Assembly: GCA_964106645.2 (NCBI GenBank)
Contig: OZ067039.1
Strand: one strand, 5' to 3'
Length of the DNA: 64,000 nucleotides
Source of the DNA: Podarcis pityusensis
Taxonomy: Eukaryota
Positions within the stretch are counted from its first letter, which is position 1; the number at the start of each line of letters is the position of its first letter. Made by a program: the position numbers and the translations under genes. The notes beneath the pieces were generated by a model. That model was not told the DNA's origin. It was given only the letters and a program-made list of their open reading frames with translations, and did not search any database. This document shows positions 3,664 through 31,044 of the stretch, piece by piece.

Positions 3664-4012
3664 CAGTGGTGCCTCGCAAGACGAAATTAATCCGTTCCGC
3701 GAGTGTCTTCGTCTAGCGGTTTTTTCGTCTTGCGAAGCAACCCTATTAGTGGCTTAGCGGATTAGCGCTATTAGCGGTTTAGCGGCTATTAAAGGCTTAG
3801 CGGCTTAGCTGCTAAAAGGCTATTAGCGCCTTAGCGGCTTAGAAAAAGGGGGGGGGGGAGCGAAAAAAATTCTCAAGACTCGCAAGACATTTTCGTCTTG
3901 CGAAGCAAGCCCATAGAGAAATTCGTCCTGCGAAGCGCATCGAAAAACGGAAAACCCTTTCGTCTAGCGGGTTTTCCGTCTTGCAAGGCATTCGTCTTGC
4001 GGGGCACCACTG
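3664..4012. mobile_element. Tc1/mariner (Tigger/pogo-like) MITE
   Basis: 22-bp TIRs CAGTGGTGCC(T/C)CGCAAGACGAA (21/22 match), TA flanking both ends, internal TTAGCGG tandem units. Confidence 0.9.
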
Positions 4013-8930: not shown

Positions 8931-9285
8931 TGAGACGCAAGTGGCGCTGTGGGTTAAACCACAGAGCCTAGGACTTGCCGATCAGAAGGTTGGCGGTTCG
9001 AATCCCTGCGATGGGGTGAGCTCCCATTGTTCGGTCCCTGCTCCTGCCAACCTAGCAGTTCGAAAGCATGTCAAAGTGCAAGTAGATAAATAGGTACCGC
9101 TCTGGGGGGAAGGTAAACGGTGTTTCTGTACGCTGCTCTGGTTTGCCAGAAGCAGCTTAGTCATGCTGGCCTCATGACCCGGAAACTGTACGCCGGCTCC
9201 CTCGGCCAATAAAGCGAGATGAGTGCTGCAACCCCAGAGTCGGCCATGACTAGACCTAATGGTCAGGAAGTCCCTTTACCTTTAC
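8931..9285 (+). mobile_element. Sauria SINE (lacertid type)
   Basis: tRNA-like head GTGGCGCTGTGG...GGTTCGAATCC, body GCAGTTCGAAAGCA...AGATAAATAGGTACC, (ACCTTT)n tail; tatgagac duplicated at 8929 and 9286. Confidence 0.93.
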
Positions 9286-12140: not shown

Positions 12141-12184
12141 ATCAAATATATATAATATATATAAATATATATAAATATATATAT

Positions 12185-12550
12185 AAAGGTAAGGTAAAGG
12201 TACCCCTGCCCGAAGGCCAGTTGTGACCGACTCTGGGGTTGCGTGCTCATCTCGCTCAAGAGGCCGGGAGCCGGCGCTGTCCGAAGACACTTCCGGGTCA
12301 CGTGGCCAGCGTGACGAAGCTGCGTCTGGCAAGCCAGCACCAGCGCAGCACACGGAAATGCCGTTACCTTCCCGCTATAAAGAGGTCCCTATTTATCTAC
12401 TTGCACCTAAGGGTGCTTTCGAACTGCTAGGTTGGCAGGAGCCGGGACCGAACGACGGGAGCTCACCCCGTCACGGGGATTCGAACCGCCGACCTTACGA
12501 TCGGCAAGTCCTAGGCACTGAGGTTTTACCCACAGCGCCACCCGCGTCCC
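12185..12550 (-). mobile_element. Sauria SINE (second subfamily, CpG-rich and probably young) inserted in (TA)n
   Basis: The reverse complement starts GGGACGCGGGTGGCGCTGTGGGTAAAACC and ends (ACCTTT)n. Confidence 0.93.
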
Positions 12551-14023
12551 ATATATATATATATAAAACCGAGAGAAGAAATCCAGTACTGAAACATCCA
12601 TTGACGAATCATTCAGGGACAAGTTAAGGCTCAGCCAATTGATATTTTCCCCCAGTAACACTATAATTTAACATGGAATTTTATCCTGTCTTCTAATAAC
12701 AATATTCAGCAGCTTCATGTGCAGCTGGTTTTGAGCACCTCAACACTTGGAGCTACTTTAAAGTTTCTAAAGTTCAGATAAATGGATCTTCTAAGTAGGA
12801 GTCTAAAAACACCTGGACTTTTTTCTTCTGCTCAGGCAAATGGACAGTGACAGTGGAATCGGCAATTGCGGCGCAGGGCGAGGGGACTTTGGTAGTGATA
12901 ATAATCAATTTGGTGGCATGACTGTGGAGAGCTGCAATGGCCTTTGAGAGGAATCGGAATACTTTTTTCTGAGTTGCTAAACAAACAAACGAATCCATTA
13001 CTTTGAAATAATATCATATTGCTCAGCATTAGAGAAGCAAGGCATCTTCGTTTTACTGTCTGTTTTTATCATCCGTTGTGCCACTGTTAAAAAGCAATAG
13101 TTTTATAAGCTGTAGGAGCCAATCTGCTGTTGTCTGTCTGTATATTGCTGAAAACTTTACATAGTCTGACAGAGAAAATTGCCCTTTGCATTCACTGTTG
13201 GCAGAGGAAACAAGCTGAAAGTATGTCCAGTTCTTATAAAACACTGACAACCTCACAATGCACCAAGCAATAAAAAGAATAGATTTTCTATCCTATGCTT
13301 AAAGTGGTAGAATAAAAGGGAGCTGGAAGAAAAGGGGAAACTTTTCTAAGGGCCATGTACGCATCAGAGTTAAACTGGGTCACTCTGCAATGCAACGTAG
13401 ATTTTTACCGCATATAAATTTAGCAGCTTTCTTTGGCATTAGGTGTGTGCCAGCAGCATTTTTCTGTTATCTCAAGTTCAGAGCAGGTCCATTGAGGTAC
13501 TATGAAATTTGAGCCAGGTATCATAAATTGTAGTAGTTAGAATAGAAACTGTTGTCAATTATAAAAGACATGTTGGTTGATGTTGCACCTAGAGTAAGAC
13601 TGGGGAAATGTTAACTGAATCTGAAATTGGATAGATGCAAGTAGTTTTCCTGCTTGTTTTTCAAATGCATGACTGAGCACTCTCTCCTTAGCTGCATGTT
13701 AAAAAATAAAACAAAAAAATGCTTGCGAAGGCAAGGGATTCAAGCATCTTTTTCTGGAAGACTAATGAACATTAAGTTCTCTTTCAGGAGCTTCACAGAT
13801 ATGTATTTCCACTGGAAAATCAGGGATTTGTGCGCAGTTAGGAACAAACTTTCACAAGAGATGTGTCGCTGCCTCTGAAAACAGGAGCCTCAGTCACATT
13901 CCTGCCTTCTCTCTTCCCTGCTAACAATACCTCACCATACTGTGTGCTTTGCCACCCTGCTTCACTTCCTTGGTTGCTGCTTGGGGAGAGGGGCTGTCCC
14001 ACATATGTTTTTTACTAGTTATT

Positions 14024-14358
14024 TGAAATATGCTCGGAGTCGAGAGTGGTCATGCTTTTTATTCAGCTCATAGTGGTGAGGAGGAATGGAAATTCCCCCA
14101 AAATGTCTGCTTTATATACATTATTTACACAATGGGCCCCACGTGATTGGTTAATTCCGGGATTCTCCTGTAGGCCAATCAGGTTTCAGATTCACTTCCA
14201 CCTGGAGCTGGATTGGGTGGCTCCTGTGGACCAATCAGGCTGCTGCATTCCGAATCCTATTGTTCTAGGACCAATCAGACTGCTGCATTTTGGATCCTAT
14301 TGTTCTAGGACCAATCAGACTGCTGCATTTTGGATCCTAGTCAACTCAGTACATAACA
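14024..14358 (-). mobile_element. Solo LTR with 40-bp CCAAT-containing tandem repeat
   Basis: TG...CA ends, exact 5-bp TSD ttatt, minus-strand TATATAAA followed by AATAAA; ~3 copies of ggaccaatcagactgctgcattttggatcctattgttcta. Confidence 0.85.
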
Positions 14359-14996
14359 TTATTGCAGAGGGGAGGAGGAGTTGATTTGGGGTTGCTGCTG
14401 TCAAATTCATGCCATACATTTAAAGCGCATGGCTTCCCCCCAGAGAATCCTGGGAACTGTATCTCCCATCTCACAGAGCTACAATTGCTAGCATAGGTGC
14501 CAACTCTGTGGGGCCCTGGAGCACCCACAAAATTCCCCATGAAGAAGCCAGGCACCCACAAATTTTGGTGCCAGGGCCCTGCACGCTGCATGGGTACCCA
14601 TGGCCCCGGGCACCCAAGTCATGGGGCCAAGCTGGTACTCCTGATTCTGAGCATAGTTCCCAGGATTCATGTGGTGAAGTCACATGCTTTTAATGTGCAT
14701 TAGATGCGCTTTTAATATATGGTGTGGATCTGTATGCTGGCGGCTGCCTGTCTTACCTAGCATCTGATGAGCGCTCCAGGAATTGCACTTGGAGAGATCC
14801 CAATTTGATAATTAAATTCAGAGTGCTTACCTCAACTGTAAGTCATCAGCCGGTGACTAAATACACAAATGCATATTTTGACACGATACTACAGCTATGT
14901 TGCAGCCTCTGCTTTTAAGTGTGTGCTCCTTTTCATATTGTTTCGTCATTCCCCTTCAGACCCCATTTGATACCAAAACAGGAATGTGGTGAATGT

Positions 14997-15210
14997 GCCA
15001 GTGTGGTGTACTGGTTTAGGTGTTGGACTAGGACCTGCAAGACCAGGGTTCAAATCAGGCATGGAGCGCACTGTGTCTTGGGTCAGTTCCCTTCTCTCTC
15101 TCTTAGCCTAGCCTACCACACAAGCCTGTGGTGGTGATAAAGTGAGAGCGACAACCATGGATATCATCTTGAGTTCCTTGGAAGAGAGGTGGGATATAAA
15201 TGCTAAAATA
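14997..15210 (+). mobile_element. CORE/Squam3-like SINE
   Basis: GCCAGTGTGGTGTA.TGG A-box, GGTTCAAATC B-box, GGGATATAAAT + (TAA)n tail. Confidence 0.65.
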
Positions 15211-15614
15211 ATATTAATATTAATATTAATAATAATAATTTTAAACCCAAATGAATATCAACTCACCAAAAAACTGGAAAAAATACAGCAATCCTGTTCC
15301 AAAGCAGATCTTAACATGAATTTCCATGTGCAAGCTCACTGCTGAATTTTCTTTCTCAGAGGCAACGTTCAGGTTGGTTTCTATGCTATTTAAAACTCCA
15401 CAATTTTCCTCTTTGACTGAAACTGTGTTTCTTCAGAGCTTCCCATTCAGAAAGCGTGTTCTCCCTAACCAGAGAGCACGTGTTGCGGTTGGGGAAACAT
15501 GCCACCCTGCCATGACTAGGCAGATTTGAGAGAAAACCCAAGCCTTCTAAAGGGTTAAGATTGGGTTGCTGGGGATTTTTGTATGTTGCTAAATTCAGAG
15601 GAGGGGTTAGAGTC

Positions 15615-15620
15615 TATAAA
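15615..15620 (+). promoter_or_regulatory. TATA box of the retrotransposon promoter
   Basis: TATAAATATAAGGGG about 55 bp inside the inferred left end, followed by a nearly ATG-free leader. Confidence 0.6.
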
Positions 15621-16160
15621 TATAAGGGGCCAGAGGTTGGACTTCCTCTTGGCCGTTTTGCTTCGGATCAGGAGAGACGGTTGTATTTCTGAGCTTATTT
15701 GACTTCTACTTTCGAATTCCTTGGGCCTAGGTTTAAAAATCTTCCCTTTTTCCCTCGTGCTGCTCCGTATTTGATTTTCCTTCCCAAATCCCCTTCCCCT
15801 CCCCACCCCCCCATCCCGTGTGTATTAATTAATCCCTCATTTTAGTTATATATTTAGAGGAAGTTTTTAACGCCTAGGCTAGAGGGTGGGTACCCCCCCC
15901 CGGCCTTGGGGCCTGCCCCTGTTAGGGCCCGGCAGCCTGATTCCCGGGCGGCGGCCGCTGGCTGTTGGCCGGGCTCCAGCCACTTGTTAAGGTGGGAGGC
16001 CTGCAGCGAGCCGCCCAGGCCTCGCGGAAATTTTCTTGAATTTTAACAATAATAATAATAATATATAGAAATAAATAGAATCCTCCTCTTACCTTTCGCG
16101 GTTTTCCTGGTGCCGTGGGGGGAAGGTGCCTTGGTTTGGCCCCTAACCAGGGCCGCGGCA

Positions 16161-16420
16161 GCGCCCGCCATTTAAGGGGCACCCTTCACGGACCTCGTGG
16201 GTGCAGGGCTGCTTCGGGGAGGAATTGCCTTCCCCCGGTTTCGGCCGCTCGCTGCGAGAGCGGCTGAATTGTTAAAGGGTAGCGGCGGCTGCAGTGCGGC
16301 CAAGTTAGCGGCGGCCGGGCCGGGGCCAGGGCTCCTTGCGTGCCCGGCCTCTCCGTTAGGTTTGCGGGGCCGCCTCCCCTGGGGCTTGGGGCTGCGGCTC
16401 GTTGTTGCGCCCGCCATTTT
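16161..16420 (+). promoter_or_regulatory. Two YY1-like motifs
   Basis: GCGCCCGCCATTT occurs at 16161-16173 and 16407-16419; CGCCATTTT is the YY1 consensus. Confidence 0.55.
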
Positions 16421-16486
16421 CTGCTTCTTCGTGGCGCATCTCCGGGGGAGGAGGATTTCTCCACGGTGGTTGATTTTTTCCCTGCT

Positions 16487-16628
16487 CGCCCTCCGGTGGC
16501 CGTGCAGGGTTATTGCAGCTGAGCAGTGTGCCGGCGCTCCCCCTGGTGGCTCGGCTTGCTAGTGCACCTTCTCCAGTGTGAGTTTCGGGCTGGCTGGTGC
16601 CCCCTGCTGGCCGGGCTCAGGAAGTGCA
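16487..16628 (-). promoter_or_regulatory. Three co-oriented CTCF motifs with upstream module
   Basis: Cores CGCCCTCCGGTGGC (16487), CTCCCCCTGGTGGC (16537) and TGCCCCCTGCTGGC (16598), each followed 13-14 nt later by TGCA. Confidence 0.7.
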
Positions 16629-16972
16629 TTTATTTTATTTTAATTTTTAAGTTTATTTGATTTTATATGCTTAAAATAAAATAAAAAAATAAAAATAAAT
16701 AAATAAATAAATAAATAAGAAGAAGAAGAACAAGTACATAAAACAAATATAAACAAATAAGTAAAAGTAATAAAAAATAAAATAAAATAAATAAATAATC
16801 GAAATATATATATATATATAAAAAAATCATTCTGTTTTTTGCATTTATTTAGTTTTAATTTATCTGACAGCGATTGGTGTAATTCCTTCACTTCTGTAAA
16901 TTATTTAGTTGCGTTCAGCAGCGCCGCCTGGCTGCGGCAATCGTTAATTCTCATTTTGATCCAATAGCAGGT

Positions 16973-18497
16973 ATGCCTCCTAAGAAAGCCGCTGCTCGTC
17001 CCGCCTCGGCCTCTGGTGCTAAACGGCCTATTAGAGGTCCATCGCAGGCGCTTCGCTCTCCTACCCCAAGGCAACCGGTGGGACGGGTGCAATCCTTGGT
17101 AGAAAGTATGGCCGGCAATCCAGCAGCATTGTCTCGCTTCGCAGCCGAAATGGATGGTTTCCTGCAACACTGCTCTGCACAGCCTTCCACGTCTGGGAGG
17201 CGTCCTTGCCCAGTAGTGGCATCATCTCCAGCGTCGCCGTCCTCTAGTGAAGAAGGGAGAGATGGCTCATTATCTAGGGGTTTGATAGCCGATTCCCAGC
17301 TTGCTCGGTCCCGTGTCTTACCTGCTGCTCGCGGCCGTTCGCGGAGGCCGCGCCGTTCCGCTGGGAGGGCCGCGGGAAGGCAAAACCCCTTGGCCCCTTC
17401 CACCCGCCGAGCTGTGCGCACCCAACCTTCGGATGAGGTGGCATCGGGTTCAGGCCTATCACTGGTTGTTTCTCCTCAGTCTGCTCCAGGTACATCACAG
17501 CTGAGCCCTGATTCTGAGTCTTCCATTGAGGACAGCTTGCCGGTTCCCGCCAGGAAGTCTTCGGGCGGAAAACGTCGCCGCAGAAGGTCTTCCCGGAAAC
17601 ATGCCAAGCGAAGGAGGGGTGAATCATCTTCCTCGTATTCTGGTACGTCATCCTCCAGTTCTGATGATGAGTCTGGCAATTCCAGGGAACTTTATTGGGG
17701 TTTTGGAGAATCGGCCTCGGGATTGCCTCGGTGGGCTTGGGATCGGAGGGCCAACACGCACCGCGCAAGGTATGGGGCGGTCCAGGAGTGCAGGGATGGC
17801 GTGTTGGTGCCTGACGTTAAAGTCTCTACCAATTCTGCTAGGGACATTATCCCTGGTTTGCATTTGTCAACAAAACTGCGGTCCAGGATTCTGAACGGCC
17901 GTTATGTGGACATCTTCAAATTGGCCCCTCCTTCGGAGGACCAGGAGGCAGGGAAGTCGCCCAAAAAACGCCAGGGCACTCCCTCAGTAGACAGGACTTT
18001 CGAGCATTGGCTCGATTGTTTCCAGGTCTTTGCTGGTGTGGTGGTGGCAGCTTACCCTCGGAGATCTCTTCATTTGATAGTGTACTTGTCTATTGTTCGC
18101 TCTGCTTTCACCAAAGCTGGTGAGAAAGCTGCGATAAAATATGATGAGAACTTCAGGCGCCGCGCCGCTAGGATCCCCTCAGCACGATGGGATCGTAAGG
18201 ATCTCGACGTGTGGACCACCCATGTAGCTCCACATCGATAAGAAAGCGCCGGAGCAACAGAAGTCGAGGACTGGGGCGTTTAGGACTAGCCGTCGTTTCC
18301 CATGCTGGGATTATAATAAGGGTTCTTGTCAGCGGCAGGGGTGTAGGTATGCCCACATTTGTGAGAAATGCAATGGTTCGCATCCTGCCTCCTCTTGTTT
18401 TGGCAATCGGCGGCCCTTTCGTGGCGGAAAAGGGGGTTCTCAGCAAACCCCCAAGCAAAACACCCCTCTCGCTCCTGCCCCAGGCACAGGAAAATGA
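16973..18497 (+). CDS. Gag-like ORF1 of the YR retrotransposon, frameshifted at ~18230
   Basis: 422-aa ORF (Ser/Arg-rich N-terminus; I..GRYVD, W..CF..F, YDE.FR motifs) stops at 18241. The CCCH+CCHC zinc fingers (CWDYNKGSCQRQGCRYAHICEKCNGSHPASSC) continue in another frame, 18231-18497. Confidence 0.85.
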
Positions 18498-18510
18498 GCT
18501 TTTGTCAGCC

Positions 18511-20103
18511 ATGGCTCATACCCCTGTTCGGTTGCCGGCCCTGCAGCTTTGGTTGCAGTCTTATCCTAACAGGGATGCTGCAGGTTATTTGAGGGATGGT
18601 TTTTCTGTTGGTTTCCGGATTCCGGTAGCCATGCCTCCCGTGGCACGGAATCCGTCTAACCAAAAATCGATTCGTGAGCTACCTGACGTCGCTCGCAGAA
18701 AGATTGCAAAGGAGCTGGCCATGCATCGGATGGCCGGTCCTTTTGATGCCCCTCCCTTTCATAATTTGCATGTATCCCCATTGGGTATTGTCCCAAAGAA
18801 GGCTCCGGGTGAATTTCGTTTAATTCATAATTTGTCACATCCTAGGGGTACTTCAGTCAATGATGTTATCCCCCCGGAGCTTTGCTCCGTGAAGTATGCA
18901 TCTCTTGATCAGGCGATCAAGATGATTAGGAAGTTCGGCCACGCTGCCCTATTGGCAAAATGCGACATTGAGTCGGCATTCCGCCTTCTCCCAATTCACC
19001 CGGATGATTTTTGGCTACTGGGTTTTCAGTTTGAGGGCAAGTATTACTTTGACAAAGCCATGCCTATGGGTTGTTCAATAGCCTGCGCTGCCTTTGAATC
19101 ATTTAGCACCTTTCTCGAGTGGGCCCTTAAATTTAAAACAGGATTGGGCGGGGTCACGCATTATTTGGATGATTTTTTATTGGCCTCGGCTCACGATACT
19201 GGTGAGTGCTCGGTGTTGCTACAGGCCTTTGCTGACCTTACGCAGGAGCTGGGGGTTCCGCTTGCTTCGGAAAAGACCGAGGGTCCATCTACTCAGCTTA
19301 CGTATTTGGGTATCCTGTTGGATACGGTTGCCCAGACTTCTAGTTTGCCAATGGACAAGCTAGTAGCCTTGAAGAAGGTCATAGAGGAACTGCTCCCTTT
19401 GAAGAAAGCATCTCTTCTACAAATTCAGTCATTGTTGGGGCATCTGAATTTCGCGTGCAGGGTGGTGGCGCCTGGGCGCCCTTTCTGTTCGCGCCTGGCT
19501 CGCCTCACTGTGGGATTGAGGGCCCCTCATCATAGGGTGCGCCTATCTAAGGAGGTGAGGGCCGATCTTTCCATATGGCTGGAATTCCTGGAGGAATTCA
19601 ATGGGGTGTCGTTATGGCAAGACACTTTAAACTTGCAAAATGATTTTCAGGTACAATCGGATGCTGCAGGTTCCCTGGGTTTTGGTCTTTACTGGAAGGG
19701 GCGGTGGTGCGCAGAGCGTTGGCCGCCTGAGTGGCAGGGAGGAGAAATTACACGGGACCTAACATTTCTCGAGTTTTTTCCCATTGCAGTGGCTGTGCAT
19801 TTGTGGGTCGAGGAATTCAGGAACCGTCGTGTCTGCTTCTGGACCGATAATCAGGCGGTGGTGAACGTGCTGGCGAAACTGTCATCACGCTCTCCCAGGG
19901 TGTCGGCCTTATTGCGGGCCTTCGTGTTGCATTGTTTACGTCATAATATAGTGTTCTCTGCACGTTTTATTCCTGGGGTGTCTAACGAAATTGCTGATGC
20001 TCTGTCCCGTTTTCAGATGGAGCGGTTCAGACTTCTGGTTCCAGAGGCGCGGATACGTCCGGAGTATTTCCCGGATCATCTCTGGAACCTTGGCAGCAAT
20101 TAG
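18511..20103 (+). CDS. Reverse transcriptase / RNase H (DIRS/Ngaro pol)
   Basis: Motifs SPLGIVPKK, FRLIHNLS, KCDIESAFR, MPMG, YLDDF, YLGI; RNase H SDA...LE...TDN...ADALSR. ATG in GCCATGG context (the frame is open from before 18211). Confidence 0.95.
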   Translation: MAHTPVRLPALQLWLQSYPNRDAAGYLRDGFSVGFRIPVAMPPVARNPSNQKSIRELPDVARRKIAKELAMHRMAGPFDAPPFHNLHVSPLGIVPKKAPGEFRLIHNLSHPRGTSVNDVIPPELCSVKYASLDQAIKMIRKFGHAALLAKCDIESAFRLLPIHPDDFWLLGFQFEGKYYFDKAMPMGCSIACAAFESFSTFLEWALKFKTGLGGVTHYLDDFLLASAHDTGECSVLLQAFADLTQELGVPLASEKTEGPSTQLTYLGILLDTVAQTSSLPMDKLVALKKVIEELLPLKKASLLQIQSLLGHLNFACRVVAPGRPFCSRLARLTVGLRAPHHRVRLSKEVRADLSIWLEFLEEFNGVSLWQDTLNLQNDFQVQSDAAGSLGFGLYWKGRWCAERWPPEWQGGEITRDLTFLEFFPIAVAVHLWVEEFRNRRVCFWTDNQAVVNVLAKLSSRSPRVSALLRAFVLHCLRHNIVFSARFIPGVSNEIADALSRFQMERFRLLVPEARIRPEYFPDHLWNLGSN

Positions 20104-20987
20104 TTTTGCAGGGAGTAGCGGCTTCGGTTTCACCTTCTACCCTTAGATCTTACACAAAGGCTTGGACCGATTTTTTGACATTTACGCGCCAGACAACCTC
20201 TAATTTAGAGGGTGTTCCCCCCACCTCCTCGCAGGTGTTGAGCTATTTAGCACATTTATTTCAGTTAGGGCGGGCAGCAAGAACTATTAAGATACAGGCG
20301 GCTGCCATAGCCTTTTTCTGTAAGACATTTTATGATAAGGACCCTTGTGCGAGGTTTATAGTGCGCAGGGCCCTCGAAGGCTGGAGCAGACTTCGTCCGT
20401 CCCAGCCGGCCTCACGGTGCCCCATTTCCTTTGATTTGTTGAGTAGGATGCGCAAGAGGCTGCGGGTGGTATGCTGGTCGGGGTACGAGGCTCGCCTTTT
20501 CTCGGCTGCCTTTTCTATTGCCTTTTTTGGAGCCCTGAGAGTGGGTGAGCTGGTATTTGAAGATATCAGAGATGGTCGTTCCAGGGGCCTTTTGCTCAGG
20601 GACGTGCAGCTAACCCCCGCAGAATTGAAAATCACAGTCAGAAATTCTAAGACTGATCAGAAGGGTAGGGGTGCCGTCATTCGTCTCCCTGCTACGGGAG
20701 AGGCAGGCCCTTGCCCTGTGAAGGATGTCAGTAAATACTTAGCAGTACGCGTCACGGGTGATGGGCCTCTGCTTAGACATGAAAATGGGTCGCCCCTAAC
20801 GAGACGCCAGTTTGCACAGGTGATGCGTAAAGCGATTCTCGCTTGTGACGGCACGTCGGATGGTTTCGCCCCTCACTCCTTTAGGATTGGGGCCGCAACA
20901 ACGGCTGCTCATTGGGGTTTGTCGGCCGCTAGGATAAAGGATTTGGGGCGCTGGAAGTCGAATGCCTTTCGGGGCTATGTTCGTTAG
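19998..20987 (+). CDS. Tyrosine recombinase (lambda-integrase family); no initiating ATG
   Basis: Catalytic set intact: GALRVGEL (R), SKTDQ (K), HSFRIG (HxxR), GRWKS (W), GYVR (Y). The frame is open from 19998 and overlaps the end of RNase H. Confidence 0.93.
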   Translation, partial: CSVPFSDGAVQTSGSRGADTSGVFPGSSLEPWQQLVLQGVAASVSPSTLRSYTKAWTDFLTFTRQTTSNLEGVPPTSSQVLSYLAHLFQLGRAARTIKIQAAAIAFFCKTFYDKDPCARFIVRRALEGWSRLRPSQPASRCPISFDLLSRMRKRLRVVCWSGYEARLFSAAFSIAFFGALRVGELVFEDIRDGRSRGLLLRDVQLTPAELKITVRNSKTDQKGRGAVIRLPATGEAGPCPVKDVSKYLAVRVTGDGPLLRHENGSPLTRRQFAQVMRKAILACDGTSDGFAPHSFRIGAATTAAHWGLSAARIKDLGRWKSNAFRGYVR

Positions 20988-21603
20988 TACTTTCGGACTC
21001 TTATACTGTTTGTTTTTGTTTATCTCAGGTCTGGCGGCTGTTCGCATCTGGTTGGTGGGGCACAGCATCATCCATTGGGCTGCTGTCGCAGCACGGCAGT
21101 CCAGGCTGGGTCCAGGTCTCGGCTTCCCTCCACATGTGCAGCTGTCATGGCTGTCCAGACGGGGTATGCGCTGGTCAGAGTTCCTGCCGAGGATTCGGAG
21201 GCAGTTGCTCTTGGAAGGGCAGCCCACGGCTATTGTGGTGCAGCTGGGTGAGAACGACCTGGTATCCGTGGACTGTTTATCACTTCGTGCTGCAATTTTG
21301 AGTGACTTGGAGATGCTGCGAACATTGGTGCCGTCAGCTAAAATATTTTGGTCTAAGCTATTGCAACGCCGCATTTGGATGGGCAGTCGTTGCCCGGCAG
21401 CCACAGAAAGGGCCAGAAAACGCATCAATTCTGCGGTGGCTAAGAAGATTTCTGAGTTGGGTGGTGATGTGATTTCCCATCCGGTGATTCGTTTTCAAGC
21501 TGCGCCCCTTTTTAGGGCTGATGGTGTGCACCTCTCTGCCTCAGGGAATGAGGTTTGGCTGGGTGCAGTGGTGGCCAAGCTGAGGGCTTGGTTGGGGCTG
21601 TGA
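20962..21603 (+). CDS. SGNH/GDSL hydrolase (esterase-like) ORF
   Basis: Block I WLVGHS, block II RRGM, block III QLGEND, block V DGVHL. The domain probably begins at the acceptor at 21029. Confidence 0.88.
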   Translation: MPFGAMFVSTFGLLYCLFLFISGLAAVRIWLVGHSIIHWAAVAARQSRLGPGLGFPPHVQLSWLSRRGMRWSEFLPRIRRQLLLEGQPTAIVVQLGENDLVSVDCLSLRAAILSDLEMLRTLVPSAKIFWSKLLQRRIWMGSRCPAATERARKRINSAVAKKISELGGDVISHPVIRFQAAPLFRADGVHLSASGNEVWLGAVVAKLRAWLGL

Positions 21604-21940
21604 GTGGTTTGGCGGTGAGCTGGAGGCTCCATGGCGGTTAGGCATTGGTTAAAGTGGTGCTTGGAGGGGTAAGTGCCTACCCCTCCAAATGATGCGAAGG
21701 GAATTCCGTTAAAGGAATCCAGGGGCTTGCCATTCATTTCGTCCTTGTCCCTGGCATCGGACTTGGGCCGTGCAAGCCCCAAAGGAACATGAGGGTGAGA
21801 AGTGAGGGACTGATGCCCAGCTTCATTTTCTCACCCAATACTTGTTTCCCACTCTGGCTTCCGCTGGTGTCCGGAATGCCAGCTCTGTCCCTGAGGGCAT
21901 GGACAGATAGTCATAACCAATGCCTAAGCAACCACTCACA
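21599..21940 (+). other. Predicted multibranch structured RNA in the retrotransposon 3' region
   Basis: Perfect long-range stems of 11 bp (21599-21609/21930-21940) and 14 bp (21638-21651/21914-21927) enclose at least five hairpins. Confidence 0.7.
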
Positions 21941-21951
21941 TTTTTTGTATG

Positions 21952-21957
21952 AATAAA
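21952..21957 (+). terminator. Polyadenylation signal of the element
   Basis: AATAAA directly after the structured region, with a GT/T-rich tract at ~22000. Confidence 0.6.
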
Positions 21958-22554
21958 GTTGTGGCCAAAATTATGCCAAAAAACCTAAACAAAAATTGAT
22001 GTGTGAAGTGTGATTTATTTGGGGGGTGGCAATTGTGGGACTCAACACGCAATTGCTTCAGAGTCAAGTAGAAGCTCTTTATCTCATGATCTCTTGTTTG
22101 CAATTCAGCAGGATGCTGGCTTAATTACAGAATGTGATGGTGGCTGAGTTTACAGCCCACCAGATGGTTATGTCAGTTGTTAAAAGCGCAAGATCCCCAC
22201 CCATCCACTGGAATGTTGTTACAGCTCTCCTACGCTGGATTGGCATTAGTTAAGATGGCTGCTTTGTTTAGCAGTGAATGAAGTTAAGGAAAGATGGTGA
22301 GGTTTGCTGCACTTTTGTAGATGCCAAATGTGCAACAATATGGAGGATGCCATAGGTTGTGTGGTTTCAGCTCCCTTAGGAAAGCTGGAATTTAGATGAA
22401 GCTGCTTGGAAAAATTTGCAACACAGTGGCAAGGTGCATAATAAAGGTTAAAGGCATAGCCTGTATTGCCAGTACAATTTGCAAAAGGTGGCTTCTTGTA
22501 AAGGACAAGGCAATTTAGACCTGGTGCTGGACTTGCCGCACTAGACAGCCTATT

Positions 22555-22685
22555 CCCTTTTAAAATGTGTTGTTTTTATTTTGATTATGTATTTTGTGGT
22601 TTTATATTCTGATTTTATTCTGGGAACCACCTTGAGACCTGTGGGTGTAGGGCGGTATATAAATTCAATAAATTAATAAAATAAT
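22555..22685 (+). mobile_element. LINE (L2-like) 3' tail fragment
   Basis: T-rich tract followed by CCACCTTGAG...GGGCGGTATATAAAT and an (AATAA)n tail. Confidence 0.5.
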
Positions 22686-24257
22686 AGAAAAGTGAAAATT
22701 AAATCGTGTGTACAAGTGGAAGCATGAAATCTGAAAACATAGCACTGTAGGAAGTCCTGCATGACCATTTGTGGGAAGACCATTTGCCTTCCATTCATGG
22801 TATTATTTTGTTAACTCCCTGCTTTTTCTTCATTGTGTTTCTCTTCTCCTACTTCCTAGATTTAATGCTGGCTTTTTCTTTGTTATCATGAAAGTCAAAA
22901 CCTGCTCAGATATTGCATGATGGGCTATAATTTAATATGGTATTTAACCTTTTAAATGTGCTTATCCATTTGTCTTTTTTTTTGTCTACCGCTAAGTCAT
23001 TTCACAGTTGAGTTGCAGTAGTCAGCAAATGAACCCATTCACAATATCCACATGGATATCACTGAAATAAAACCAGCTATGAATATCAACCAGCTACTTC
23101 TTCTTCTGCCTTCATAAAACCTTCTATATTGGGATGATGCACAGGGATGCAAGATTTAGGCTGGGTTCTCTGCACGGCGTTGTGACTCTTGTCTATTTCT
23201 CGACTACTCCCCATGCTTGTCGAGACAATAAGCTCTTCTGTGCAATGCCTTCTTTCATTGTAAGTCCTCTCATATTTGCATAGATGGCATTATGTCAACA
23301 TTATACACAAAAGTGTATATAAAAACTCACCTCTGGGATCCCCACTCTTGTATGCTAACAGTGTTAGCATACAAATCCTACATATTTCTGTTCAGAAGTA
23401 AATCTTGCTGAGTGAAATAGGACTTAACTTTCAAGTGGGTATAGCTTTGCAGCCTGAAAAACTAAAACCAAAGCAGGGCTGTGCATTAGTAGGTGGCTTA
23501 GTGACCAGGGACTCTCACTGAATTCTGTGCAGCAAAACAAATAGGCTACAAATGGCAACAATATTGGGAGATAAATTGGGTTCATTGGGTACAGATTTAG
23601 CTCACATTCCAATAAAATTATTGGGAACACATCCTTTAATTTTTTTAATCCTTTAATTTTGCTTCCAGGGCATTTTGAGATGTATTTTCAACAAACATGG
23701 AAGATACTGCGCCAAACAGCTAGAAACTATTTTTTAAAAAGAAAAGAAAATTAATGGAGCCCTTGGATCACCTTGCAAAACTGTAGGTAGTTGACCAGTG
23801 TTCTGGAGGTACATGCATTAGACTTATTGCAGAAGTCTAATGCATGTACCTCCATCCTCATCCATGCACTGGTGTGGACGGTGCAAACCAGGGATACTGG
23901 CTCCAAATTGTGGCACAGACATAATTCTTTCTCACTGTTCATGGGCCCTTTTTTGCACTGAGATGGAGAAATGAACTTGTTTGGAAAAAATATGGGTTTG
24001 TTCCCACTGATAATAGTATAAGGTCAGTGGCAGAGAAATAGAGAGACAGATTAAGAGTGAATCAAATAATGAAATCCAAGCTTCAATTGTGCTCCAATTT
24101 AAGCTGTAAAAAAATCACCAATTGGAGACTATCCTCAAGGTTGTATATAGAGGAAATCCAGCAAGAGAAATATATGTAACTTGGCCTTTTACATATAGTC
24201 ATATTGCTACCACAGGGGAGATTACCTTTATTGTAAACCATCTTGGAAGTAAATTAA

Positions 24258-24422
24258 GAAATTGTCCAGTAGCATCTTAGAGACCAATTAAGTTTGTTCT
24301 GGGTATAAGCTTTCATGCGCATGCACACTTCTTCAGATACAAAGTTGATCTGAAGAAGTGTGCATGTACATGAAAGCTTATACCCAGAAGAAACTTGGTC
24401 TCTAATTTTTGGGACAATTTTT
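24258..24422. mobile_element. Penelope-like element terminal sequence as an inverted pair, each arm with a hammerhead-like motif
   Basis: Arms ~24258-24338 and ~24348-24422; each carries CTGAAGA-AGTGTGCATGxxCAT-GAAAGCTTATAC. Confidence 0.7.
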
Positions 24423-24499
24423 AATTTTTATTTATTTATTTCAACCGCGTCAGACCTACCTGCACCTTGGAAATATTTTATATTGAAAGGAGAGGTATG

Positions 24500-24859
24500 A
24501 GTCAAGAATAAAATCAAATATTCTTTTACATTTTCTTTATTTATATTTTTTTTAGTTTAAGAATTACACACTAGCCAACATTATTATATATTTACATGCT
24601 GAAACTGGCTGTAGTAAGTTTAGATTCAAGAAAATATCTCTTATGTGCTACTCAATTTACAATCATCATTTGACTACCTCCATGATCCCAGAGGTTAGCA
24701 GTCCTTTTGAGAAAAACATGAAAATCTGATGCAATGATATCCACTAGTATTTTGCATTTTCTAGCCATTGGAAAATGTGCATTATGTGCATATTAGAAAG
24801 GCTACAAGGTCATTAGTAAGGCTGATGATTACTACATTATGAAGTAAATAGTACTAAGT

Positions 24860-24890
<31 letters not shown>

Positions 24891-27800
24891 AGAACGGTGC
24901 AAAGACAGTACTAACAGAACCATTTAAACACCCATGCAAATTAAAATGTGAAAACTCAAAACATAGTCATCTTGATAGAATTTTTGGATGTTTTAAATGC
25001 CCGTGTTAACTAACTCAAACTGTACAATGAACCTTAAATATATTTCCGGGTGAAATTTTCTATAAATGGCATTAACAATGAAAACATATAAAATGCTGAT
25101 AAACTTGAATTAGATAACTTTTAGAGATGTGTGAAGCATTAAGAAAATAATTTAAACTAACTCTCCAACTAATATCAAACTGCAGCTAAGGTTGCCACCA
25201 TTTCAAAATAATAGTAATAACAAATTCATCATCAGAGCACTTACAGAAATAATTTGACGCATAAGGTATGTGTTGTATATAACCTGCAAAGATAACGAAT
25301 TCCAATGTATCAATTAATTAAAATGGATAGAGATGCTATCTGTATAAGCTAAAATATGGTAGTGATTAATTAACATTCCATTTATTCCTCAAAAATTCAG
25401 ACAAATGTTTCCTAGTGCATTTTGTTAAACTTTACCTTTGGTGTTAAGCAGTGTCTTGATAGTGTTCCCTTTAAATAAATTTCTAAAGTAAAGATTCTTT
25501 GGCATGGGGGGGCTGGAGTAGGGCTAGGTTGGTAAGGAAGAGACTACTATACACTGACAAATATGCCTTTCTGAAGACATTTACCTTCATGAAACAATGT
25601 CTAGAGGCCTGACCTTCATTTATACTCAAGGGGAATGACGCAAAGAGTATGTGGGGTTCTGATATGCACATGGAACTCTAAATGTGCACGACCCTGCTTT
25701 GGTGTTTGGTACGGAGGCACCAGGCCCATGGTAAATTCATTGGTAGAGGACGATCACACAGGCACAGTTCTTCTGTTCTAAGCCCACGTACTATAGCATG
25801 CATTGTCCGTCTGCATTGCCCATTGTGCAGACCGCTTGCCTTTTAATTCTCCCATAACTGGAAACAAGAGCTTTGCTCCTCTGTCATGATGGCAAAAAGC
25901 CACTATGTTCTAAAAGGTAGAGAATTTTTAAAGGAGCCCATCATAACACACAGGTCAGGTCTCCTCTCTCTACCCATAGGTATGCTCAGTCAACTACATG
26001 ACCTCATGTTGCCTGGGGTCTACTTTATAGCATGCTGATTAGCCCAAGGGTTAACTCAGAGCTGCCCATTAAAATGGAGTTGTACCAGCCCTATTCTCTC
26101 AAGATCATAGCTTTAGTGCAAGTGAACATCAAAGCACATCTTTCTGTTGCTGTGTCTACAAAATTCGGCTATGGATCTCCAATCTTATAAGGAGCACTGC
26201 GCCAGCAGTTACTGCCCAGTCTCTTTAGTGTTGAGAAAGCTGAAATATCAATCACTCAATATGTGCAGGTATTTACGAGATGCTAATGCGGATAGGGCAT
26301 GCGCACATGTACATCAGAGCCACTGGATGGGGTTGCTAACTGAAAACTCTCAGTCGCTTGATTTCTCTCTGCATTGTGTCAATGATCCAGCTAATGGTCT
26401 GTGCATTGACTGTTATAAAGTTGCACTTCCCACAGATTTGTGTATTAAAATTCTTTTCTGGAATCCAAGTCTTATGCAAAAGGGTGTTTAAATTATTCTG
26501 CTAGAGAACTGCAAATATTGTACTTGGTATTTTTAAAAAAATCACTGAACAATTACTGTTTCTATTGACTGCTCATTTACAGCTTATTTAAATATTTACA
26601 TGATTTTAGGACACTAACCTAAATCATAAATAGAATCAGCTTTTTGCCTTACATTAAGTACAAATTAGAAGTTAAAAATGTTAAGAAATCTGATAATATT
26701 TACACATGTTCGGTTTTAATTATGATTGCTCACTTTGTATGTTCTATGTACAGATAGCAAAATGTTATGACCACTACTTTAAAAGTATTGTACCCTGGCC
26801 TTCCTTTTCGCTTTTTTCCATATAAATATTTTGTATTTTTTAAGCTCATTCTAGGTATTAGGACTTTTTTTTTTAAGTTACTAGTGGACAATGTTTTTAT
26901 TTTAAAAAAAGAGAAGAAACAGGCAAGCAATGTGAGAGCTAGTCTACTTTGAGATGCTAGGAGGTACAGTACTATCATAATGTCAAACTGTGAAATGCTT
27001 CGTAAGAATTATATGCATTGATCTGCTGATATAGAAATGCCCAGTTACCCTGTATAGTAAGATTTTAATTACATTAATAATTTGCTTTCTCAAAAAAATA
27101 TTCACATATCATTTGAATATAGAAAGAAAACTGTTATTAGCTTATTCCTTTAAAACACCTATGTAAGAGTCTAGCCCAAATCCAGACAACCACAAGAGCT
27201 ACAGGAGGGAGGATGCTTGCCTGCATACCAAAAAAGAAAGAACGAAAGAAAGAAAGAAAAGAAAAGATAGGGCTCAGCAGCACTGTCTTAGTCTCAGCCC
27301 GGATCATCCACCAGGAAGGCAAGAGCAGGCAGTGCTTCCTTTTGACTCTGTGAGCCCTCTTCTCCTTTCCCATAACTGACTGGCAGTATAAGCATCTCAC
27401 CCCCTTCAGTACAGATCATCTCTTAAGAGGGGGGCAGGAGCATCAAGACAGAGTCCATGTGACCTTTTGCTTACTCCTCATTCCTGTTTCCTTCTCACTG
27501 TGCGGATGTGATATAATGGGAGAAACCACGATCCCACAACTCTGCTGGGGTTACAAACAGTTTGATAGATCTTGGAATTTCACCTCCCCGCCCCCCAAAT
27601 TCCTTTTGGCAACCTTCCTGCACCTCAATAAAGCAGATCTGTGGGCAGAAACCCATTTCCATGTGGGTCGCTCTCACTGGATTAGGATGTCTGTGTGCAT
27701 ATAGCACGTATATTACACGCACACACACACAGAGGAATATATATACACATATTGGCATACATGTCTATATATTCGTTGTTTGCTTGGATAATGTTTAGTG

Positions 27801-30654: not shown

Positions 30655-31044
<390 letters not shown>

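Follow-up and report, generated by a model that had tools for sequence, protein, structure and literature searches.

CTCF of mammals reads a two-part motif made of a core and an upstream module. The CTCF proteins of lamprey and chicken (PMC5504073) and of zebrafish (PMC7182764) read the two-part motif as well, and its parts occur at two preferred spacings that are one base apart (PMC3368268), in agreement with the first-pass annotation of the present DNA, which had noted that CTCF zinc fingers 9-11 bind a TGCAG-like module at two such spacings. CTCF sites that bear the module show stronger binding and are characteristic of insulators, the module being needed for insulation, and one insulation screen required two to four tandem CTCF sites (PMC12885311). 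In mammals, lamprey and fish, transposons are known carriers of CTCF sites, and CTCF has been proposed to shield transposons from repression as a survival strategy (Schmidt 2012, PMC3368268). Transposons spread CTCF sites, and it is still debated whether the elements benefit from these sites or carry them as passengers. Among the 40 CTCF-enriched repeat types of zebrafish, defined by ChIP-supported sites, five have DIRS names, including DIRS1a_DR with 538 copies (p 9.9e-144; PMC7182764 Table S3); the main text of that paper, in its accessible part, never names DIRS.

The leader of a Ngaro-like element in a 64-kb stretch of lizard DNA (the window) carries three predicted sites of this two-part type, all on the minus strand and located between a TATA-like box (15615) and the start of gag. 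A literal string check placed the beginnings of the 13-nt CTCF-like cores at 16487, 16537 and 16598, with spacings of 50 and 61 bp, exactly where three co-oriented cores had been noticed in the first pass. The gaps from core to TGCA, given there as +14, +13 and +14, are likewise exact (14, 13 and 14 nt for sites 1, 2 and 3) and match both known upstream-module spacings; site 1 has one additional TGCA at +3. On the minus strand, the order within a site is upstream module, linker of 8 or 9 nt, core. Site 1 (16485 to 16518) combines module TGCAATAAC at the long spacing with the weakest core, which has one conserved-position mismatch, site 2 (16535 to 16567) has module TGCACTAGC at the short spacing, and site 3 (16596 to 16629) has module TGCACTTCC at the long spacing and a near-optimal core (relative score 0.95-0.98) whose 15 bp are free of CpG.

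The string TGCANTNNC is common to all three upstream modules and adds two positions to the TGCA noted earlier. The modules deviate from the TGCAGTTCC-type consensus at 3, 3 and 1 of 9 positions, and the T and C of that consensus are present in all three. When compared with a 12-nt IUPAC core, the cores show 0, 1 and 1 mismatches across the three sites, and the differences between cores fall mostly at tolerated positions, whereas the flanks are dissimilar. Taken together, the motifs are predicted two-part (core plus upstream, M1+M2) CTCF recognition sequences. Each site spans 33 or 34 bp without running into its neighbour, so simultaneous occupancy of all three would be possible.

Scoring used the JASPAR matrix MA0139.1, in a version with consistent column sums. 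With a background of 41% GC the three sites rank first, second and third in the window (p 4e-11, 2e-7 and 5e-7), their ranks become 1, 2 and 4 at 50% GC, and at 66% GC they are 1, 4 and 13, site 1 then being marginal (p ~1e-4). When 15860-16660 was dinucleotide-shuffled 3000 times, three co-oriented cores never arose at a cut-off of 13.5 bits, chosen to sit just under the weakest array site; at 10 bits they arose in 1 shuffle and at 8 bits in 20. Single cores of at least 8 bits were frequent in these leader shuffles (1393/3000). A matrix-free two-part pattern, defined as TGCA, a gap of 13 or 14 and the IUPAC core with at most one mismatch, matches exactly these three sites in the 64-kb window. 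Among 20,000 GC-matched shuffles of the leader, 20 had one such site and none had two; among 20,000 shuffles confined to the 160-nt array, 12 had one and again none had two. Twelve sites in the window score at least 8 bits, and the upstream TGCA accompanies all three of those in the array and none of the nine others. The rarity of two-part sites in shuffles places the motifs far above a GC-matched background, with site 1 alone marginal at 66% GC.

A recent origin of the units by tandem duplication was rejected, since their flanks are identical at only 37 of 121 non-motif positions. The earlier statement that the intervening sequences are not tandem duplicates thus stands for the flanks, but the linkers agree at 13 of 25 positions and one of three spacer comparisons between units reached p 0.0125. 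An ancient duplication is a possible origin of the array.

Upstream of the array, the 13-nt repeat GCGCCCGCCATTT occurs at 16161 to 16173 and at 16407 to 16419, both on the plus strand, and nowhere else in the window. Shuffled sequence contained some exact repeat of at least 13 nt in 77 of 3000 trials but never two copies of CCGCCATTT (0/3000), the latter test being post hoc. Scored with a YY1 matrix, the second copy, which contains the YY1-like CCGCCATTTT, takes fourth place in the window at 41-50% GC but is no longer among the top 14 at 66% GC, and the first copy, a weak match, is outside the top 14 at every GC background. Of the paired YY1 sites proposed in the first pass, the repeat itself is present twice, but the matrix favours only the copy at 16407 and loses it at 66% GC; the scores do not support a notable YY1 pair, and the repeat is at most suggestive of one.

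The element that contains the array is read from the plus strand. Its TATA-like box (15615 to 15622) is likely the element promoter and is followed by a GC- and CpG-rich leader (15861 to 16483; 62% GC, CpG o/e 0.79). A gag-like ORF with a CCCH-type zinc-finger tail extends from 16973 to 18497 and is frameshifted near 18233 in the present copy, and three further ORFs are open: a reverse transcriptase/RNase H ORF (18199 to 20103; YLDD present, PF00078 E 1.8e-12), a tyrosine recombinase ORF (19998 to 20987) and an SGNH/GDSL hydrolase ORF (20938 to 21603). The last of these matches PF13472 at E 2.8e-6 with 28.4 bits, under the curated cut-off of 32.9, and has GHS, GEND and DGVH motifs. As in the Ngaro superfamily (order DIRS), the gag, reverse transcriptase/RNase H and recombinase ORFs overlap and the hydrolase ORF lies 3' of the recombinase. 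The Xenopus elements DIRS-53_XT and DIRS-54_XT likewise have four overlapping ORFs for gag, RT/RH, YR and SGNH, and no methyltransferase according to the accessible text of PMC9210276. No family match to a methyltransferase was found in the present element at E 0.1.

Split direct repeats of the form A1...B1-A2-B2 were absent from a repeat search of 13000-26000, a self-BLAST in which 15001-22500 was compared with the whole window and an end-to-end local alignment; many Xenopus copies are reported to have lost them (PMC9210276). No terminal inverted repeats matched above shuffles at the element ends; with no inverted terminal match and no methyltransferase, the element does not fit the DIRS1-like superfamily, which is marked by inverted terminal repeats, an internal complementary region and a methyltransferase. 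We classify the element on its coding content as a Ngaro-like tyrosine-recombinase retrotransposon, and we use Ngaro-like rather than Ngaro because the split direct repeats are absent. Its tentative extent, 15477 to 22049, follows the CpG profile and one CACG on each side (15477-15480 and 22046-22049), a pair that weakly suggests the element ends. The CACG pair might also, on weak grounds, be a recombinase crossover core, though it may have arisen by chance.

The first-pass annotation had called the array a possible mobile insulator, and mobile at best fits the family: because the present copy has a frameshifted gag and no terminal repeats, we doubt that it could move autonomously. With three ORFs open and one frameshift, the copy looks young. 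Downstream of the ORFs, a 3' UTR with a predicted closed multi-branch fold (21599 to 21957) ends in AATAAA (21952-21957). The fold at 21599-21940 has z scores of -6.5 on the plus strand and -7.2 on the minus strand and no Rfam match, and z fell below -5 in 2 of 21 tiled windows, this one and 18506-18850 within the reverse transcriptase; the modelled 3' UTR fold is a possible replication or packaging signal. An Rfam scan of 15000-22500 gave two matches, both at chance level (E 2 and 3.6), and a bacterial promoter scan, irrelevant here, gave none.

CpG content also places the array within the element. The leader has an o/e ratio of 0.79, compared with 0.55-0.79 for the ORFs and 0.21-0.30 for the flanks, and since the leader is continuous with the ORFs and unlike the depleted flanks, we infer that the array lies inside the element. 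The first pass had further proposed that the sites may protect the CpG-rich promoter from silencing. No trace of protection from methylation was found in the sequence: CpG/GpC in the leader (48/72) does not differ from that in the ORFs (241/358, p=1.0) under composition control. Composition-controlled dinucleotide tests found no extra CpG protection of the leader relative to the ORFs (p=1.0 and 0.91) or to the 3' UTR (p=0.18 and 0.89); the uncontrolled CpG/(TpG+CpA) ratio alone differs.

Relatives of the element were found through its proteins. The gag protein gave 39 matches, of which the named ones are all lacertid, so that the host is likely a lacertid, and a Podarcis muralis model is 86% identical over the length of gag; identity across lacertid copies is 55-87%, and the zinc-finger tail lies within the same gag ORF in 22 of the 39. 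These 39 matches show that the family is multi-copy in lacertids. By translation, no convincing relative of the leader was found in 159 YR and gag hits, and four leader reading frames recovered 0 of 8000 candidates at E 10, a search whose power is low below ~65% identity and which is uninformative on conservation. Six distant loci with 39-46% RT identity were found in prokaryotic (marine) genome bins and are likely host DNA of animals. Three of the six reach upstream of gag, and in none of the six was a CTCF array or an upstream module found; they have scattered single cores of 7-11 bits. As judged from predicted motifs, a CTCF array is not universal among Ngaro-like relatives. The bins that hold these Ngaro-like contigs (L001-L006) are labelled Sedimenticola and Mariprofundus, so the contigs are likely eukaryotic contamination, and in L001 (1-6415) a hydrolase-like ORF upstream of gag suggests a tandem or permuted assembly.

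The gene next to the element is GABRB2, as the first pass had recognized. Its last coding exon (30655 to 31002, minus strand) lies outside the element, and 112 of 115 residues match beta-2 in PDB. From the stop codon at 30655 the distance is 14.0 kb to the array and 8.6 kb to the element 3' end, so the earlier figure of ~8 kb beyond the GABRB2 3' end holds only if the 3' UTR of the gene reaches ~24.5-25.4 kb. The upstream exons and promoter of GABRB2 lie rightward, the promoter outside the window. The three minus-strand motifs point to lower coordinates, toward the element promoter and left flank and away from GABRB2. This orientation, together with the convergent-loop rule, implies that the array would halt loops coming from the left across the element promoter and not those coming from GABRB2; a statement on the orientation of CTCF motifs is also found in PMC12885311. 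A new loop anchor relevant to GABRB2, as had been suggested, is unlikely with the motifs facing away from the gene.

Other repeats are present in this neighbourhood. Two near-perfect palindromes between the element and GABRB2 (24290-24396 and 23804-23854, with 49-nt and 22-nt arms) are likely small non-autonomous DNA transposons. Left of the element, 12175-12550 and 8982-9275 resemble what we take to be Sauria SINEs, which is consistent with a squamate host, 14228-14339 holds 2.8 copies of a 40-bp tandem repeat with CCAAT boxes, and 3745-3839 is a short tandem array of TTAGCGGC type; the last two are each probably part of another repeat.

The function that we favour, with about even confidence, is that of a chromatin barrier: bound by CTCF, the array would keep the CpG-rich promoter of the element open to transcription at whatever site a family member inserts. 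The array would belong to the element family, selection on the element would retain it as a CTCF cassette, CTCF in lizard cells would occupy it, and once bound it would set the promoter apart from the element body and the flanking chromatin; any host loop anchor would be a by-product, here one that faces away from GABRB2. Binding by lizard CTCF is very likely by analogy, because the proteins of lamprey, chicken and zebrafish read the two-part motif, and selection on the array sites, which the first pass had also proposed, is a fair inference from a single copy. Lying 3' of the likely promoter, the array could not itself block silencing from the left flank. The barrier reading is also weakened by its derivation from a single copy, by the null result of the controlled CpG tests, by the marginal score of site 1 at 66% GC and by the marine relatives that have no array. 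It need not act alone, as roles in insulation, splicing and activation and a passenger origin can coexist.

The main rival, in our estimate unlikely, is that CTCF sitting on the transcribed leader would influence how RNA polymerase II advances and how the transcript is spliced, and so would balance unspliced genomic RNA against spliced mRNAs. The array does lie downstream of the TATA-like box, and the family appears to splice its RNA. In the present copy, an in-phase GT donor in gag (17642/17643) and an AG acceptor before the SGNH domain (21028/21029) would yield a 414-aa fusion, and 12 of the 39 gag matches, which are predicted Podarcis gene models, are gag-hydrolase fusions, four of them exactly 414 aa. 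The Ngaro hydrolase is thus likely expressed as a spliced gag-hydrolase fusion, a route for which no prior description was found in the literature searched. A spliced pol mRNA that bypasses gag is possible as well, as an acceptor-like TCAG lies just 5' of the first ATG (18511) of the conserved RT region (18500-18513).

Splice signals in the leader itself are less telling. Donor-like sites occur at 15992, at 16578 between sites 2 and 3, and at 16971, and acceptor-like AGs at 16852-16970, but these are consensus matches only, and 16 of 354 GT sites score equally. The TAG-CAG-GT-ATG ahead of gag (16965-16975) is readable as a tandem acceptor or a donor, so that its CAG|GTATG is ambiguous evidence. 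The closest parallel for a splicing role is the latency-control cluster of KSHV, where three CTCF sites in ~136-140 bp lie in the first intron, in the 5' part of the multi-ORF, alternatively spliced latency transcript of a parasitic genome, and where loss of the sites alters polymerase state and splicing (PMC3158054, PMC4517120). The KSHV cluster has experimental proof and belongs to an unrelated DNA virus that is episomal, whereas the intronic position of the lizard array is only putative.

Distinctly unlikely is an activating role in which the cluster would dock upstream host enhancers through cohesin loops, or in which CTCF and CTCFL/BORIS would open a germline start site. The motifs face the promoter and left flank, so by the convergent rule loops ending at the array would enclose the promoter. 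CTCFL prefers sites that lack the upstream module, which counts against its involvement here. It does favour clustered CTCF sites, and these are convertible to germ-cell start sites (review PMC11488495), but module-bearing sites have been tied to insulation and not to activation (PMC12885311).

We give little credence to a functionless passenger, a GC-rich block derived from a host insulator or promoter and either captured ancestrally or already present at the insertion site. No terminal repeats fix the 5' boundary of the element, and its distant relatives have no array, as such an origin would allow. However, the block sits between the TATA-like box and gag, and in CpG content it resembles the ORFs rather than the flanks. 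A passenger would also be expected to have decayed over the time in which lacertid gag copies fell to 55-87% identity, a process invisible from one copy.

That the array is chiefly a host boundary regulating GABRB2 seems highly improbable: it lies 14 kb from the stop codon and holds the sole module-bearing cores of at least 8 bits in 64 kb, but its motifs face away from the gene, the gene promoter is beyond the window on the far side, and the young look of the copy makes long-term host exaptation unlikely. Chance matches in GC-rich DNA, as which single 8-bit cores and the marginal site 1 might pass, have a negligible probability and were rejected by the shuffles, where two two-part sites never occurred together in leader or array.

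As far as the accessible literature shows, what is new here is the arrangement, a statistically firm array of three predicted two-part CTCF sites in a Ngaro-like leader of a lizard, as transposon-borne CTCF sites were already known. For Ngaro-like elements and for elements of squamates, no report of a CTCF array was found in that literature; the accessible portions of five background sources (PMC10484683, PMC7192593, PMC3783388, 10.1101/2021.10.18.464293 and 10.1101/2024.03.05.582530) report no such array. Its interest does not rest on a specific effect on GABRB2. If the sites are bound, every insertion would add a directional boundary, which could bring rapid change to chromatin architecture in reptiles, and the combination of three diverged two-part sites with many divergent lacertid subfamilies makes the question of benefit versus hitch-hiking testable. 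More broadly, and only tentatively, vertebrate tyrosine-recombinase retrotransposons may carry compact, high-affinity CTCF cassettes of their own that are integral to the life cycle; the lacertid array would then be conserved among subfamilies, control the promoter and spliced RNAs, and have seeded many strong directional loop anchors throughout the genome.

The known systems closest to this locus each share part of its design. The tandem upstream-module insulators described in PMC12885311, including that of IL3, likewise consist of tandem module-bearing sites, and the IL3 site has a core-to-TGCA gap of 13 nt, equal to that of array site 2; unlike the lizard array, they are conserved loci fixed in the host, and their enhancer blocking has been measured. 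The Ngaro-like elements of Xenopus resemble the present one in coding capacity, and a CTCF array is not among the features described for them in the accessible text of PMC9210276. In zebrafish, DIRS1_DR, DIRS1a_DR, DIRS-1_DR, DIRS-8_DR and DIRS-10_DR are CTCF-enriched with 59-538 copies each, in a table that gives names and enrichment but neither how many CTCF sites an element has, where they lie and of what type they are, nor whether the family is of the DIRS-like or the Ngaro-like branch (PMC7182764 Table S3). The link between the DIRS order and CTCF thus has a buried precedent in that table, which hints that the link is wider than discussed. Rodent B2 and other mammalian retrotransposons also carry CTCF sites, and the rodent repeat has the two-part motif (PMC3368268); in contrast to these mammalian cases, the predicted sites described here are three, diverse in sequence, of both spacings, and placed in the leader of a protein-coding tyrosine-recombinase element of a reptile.
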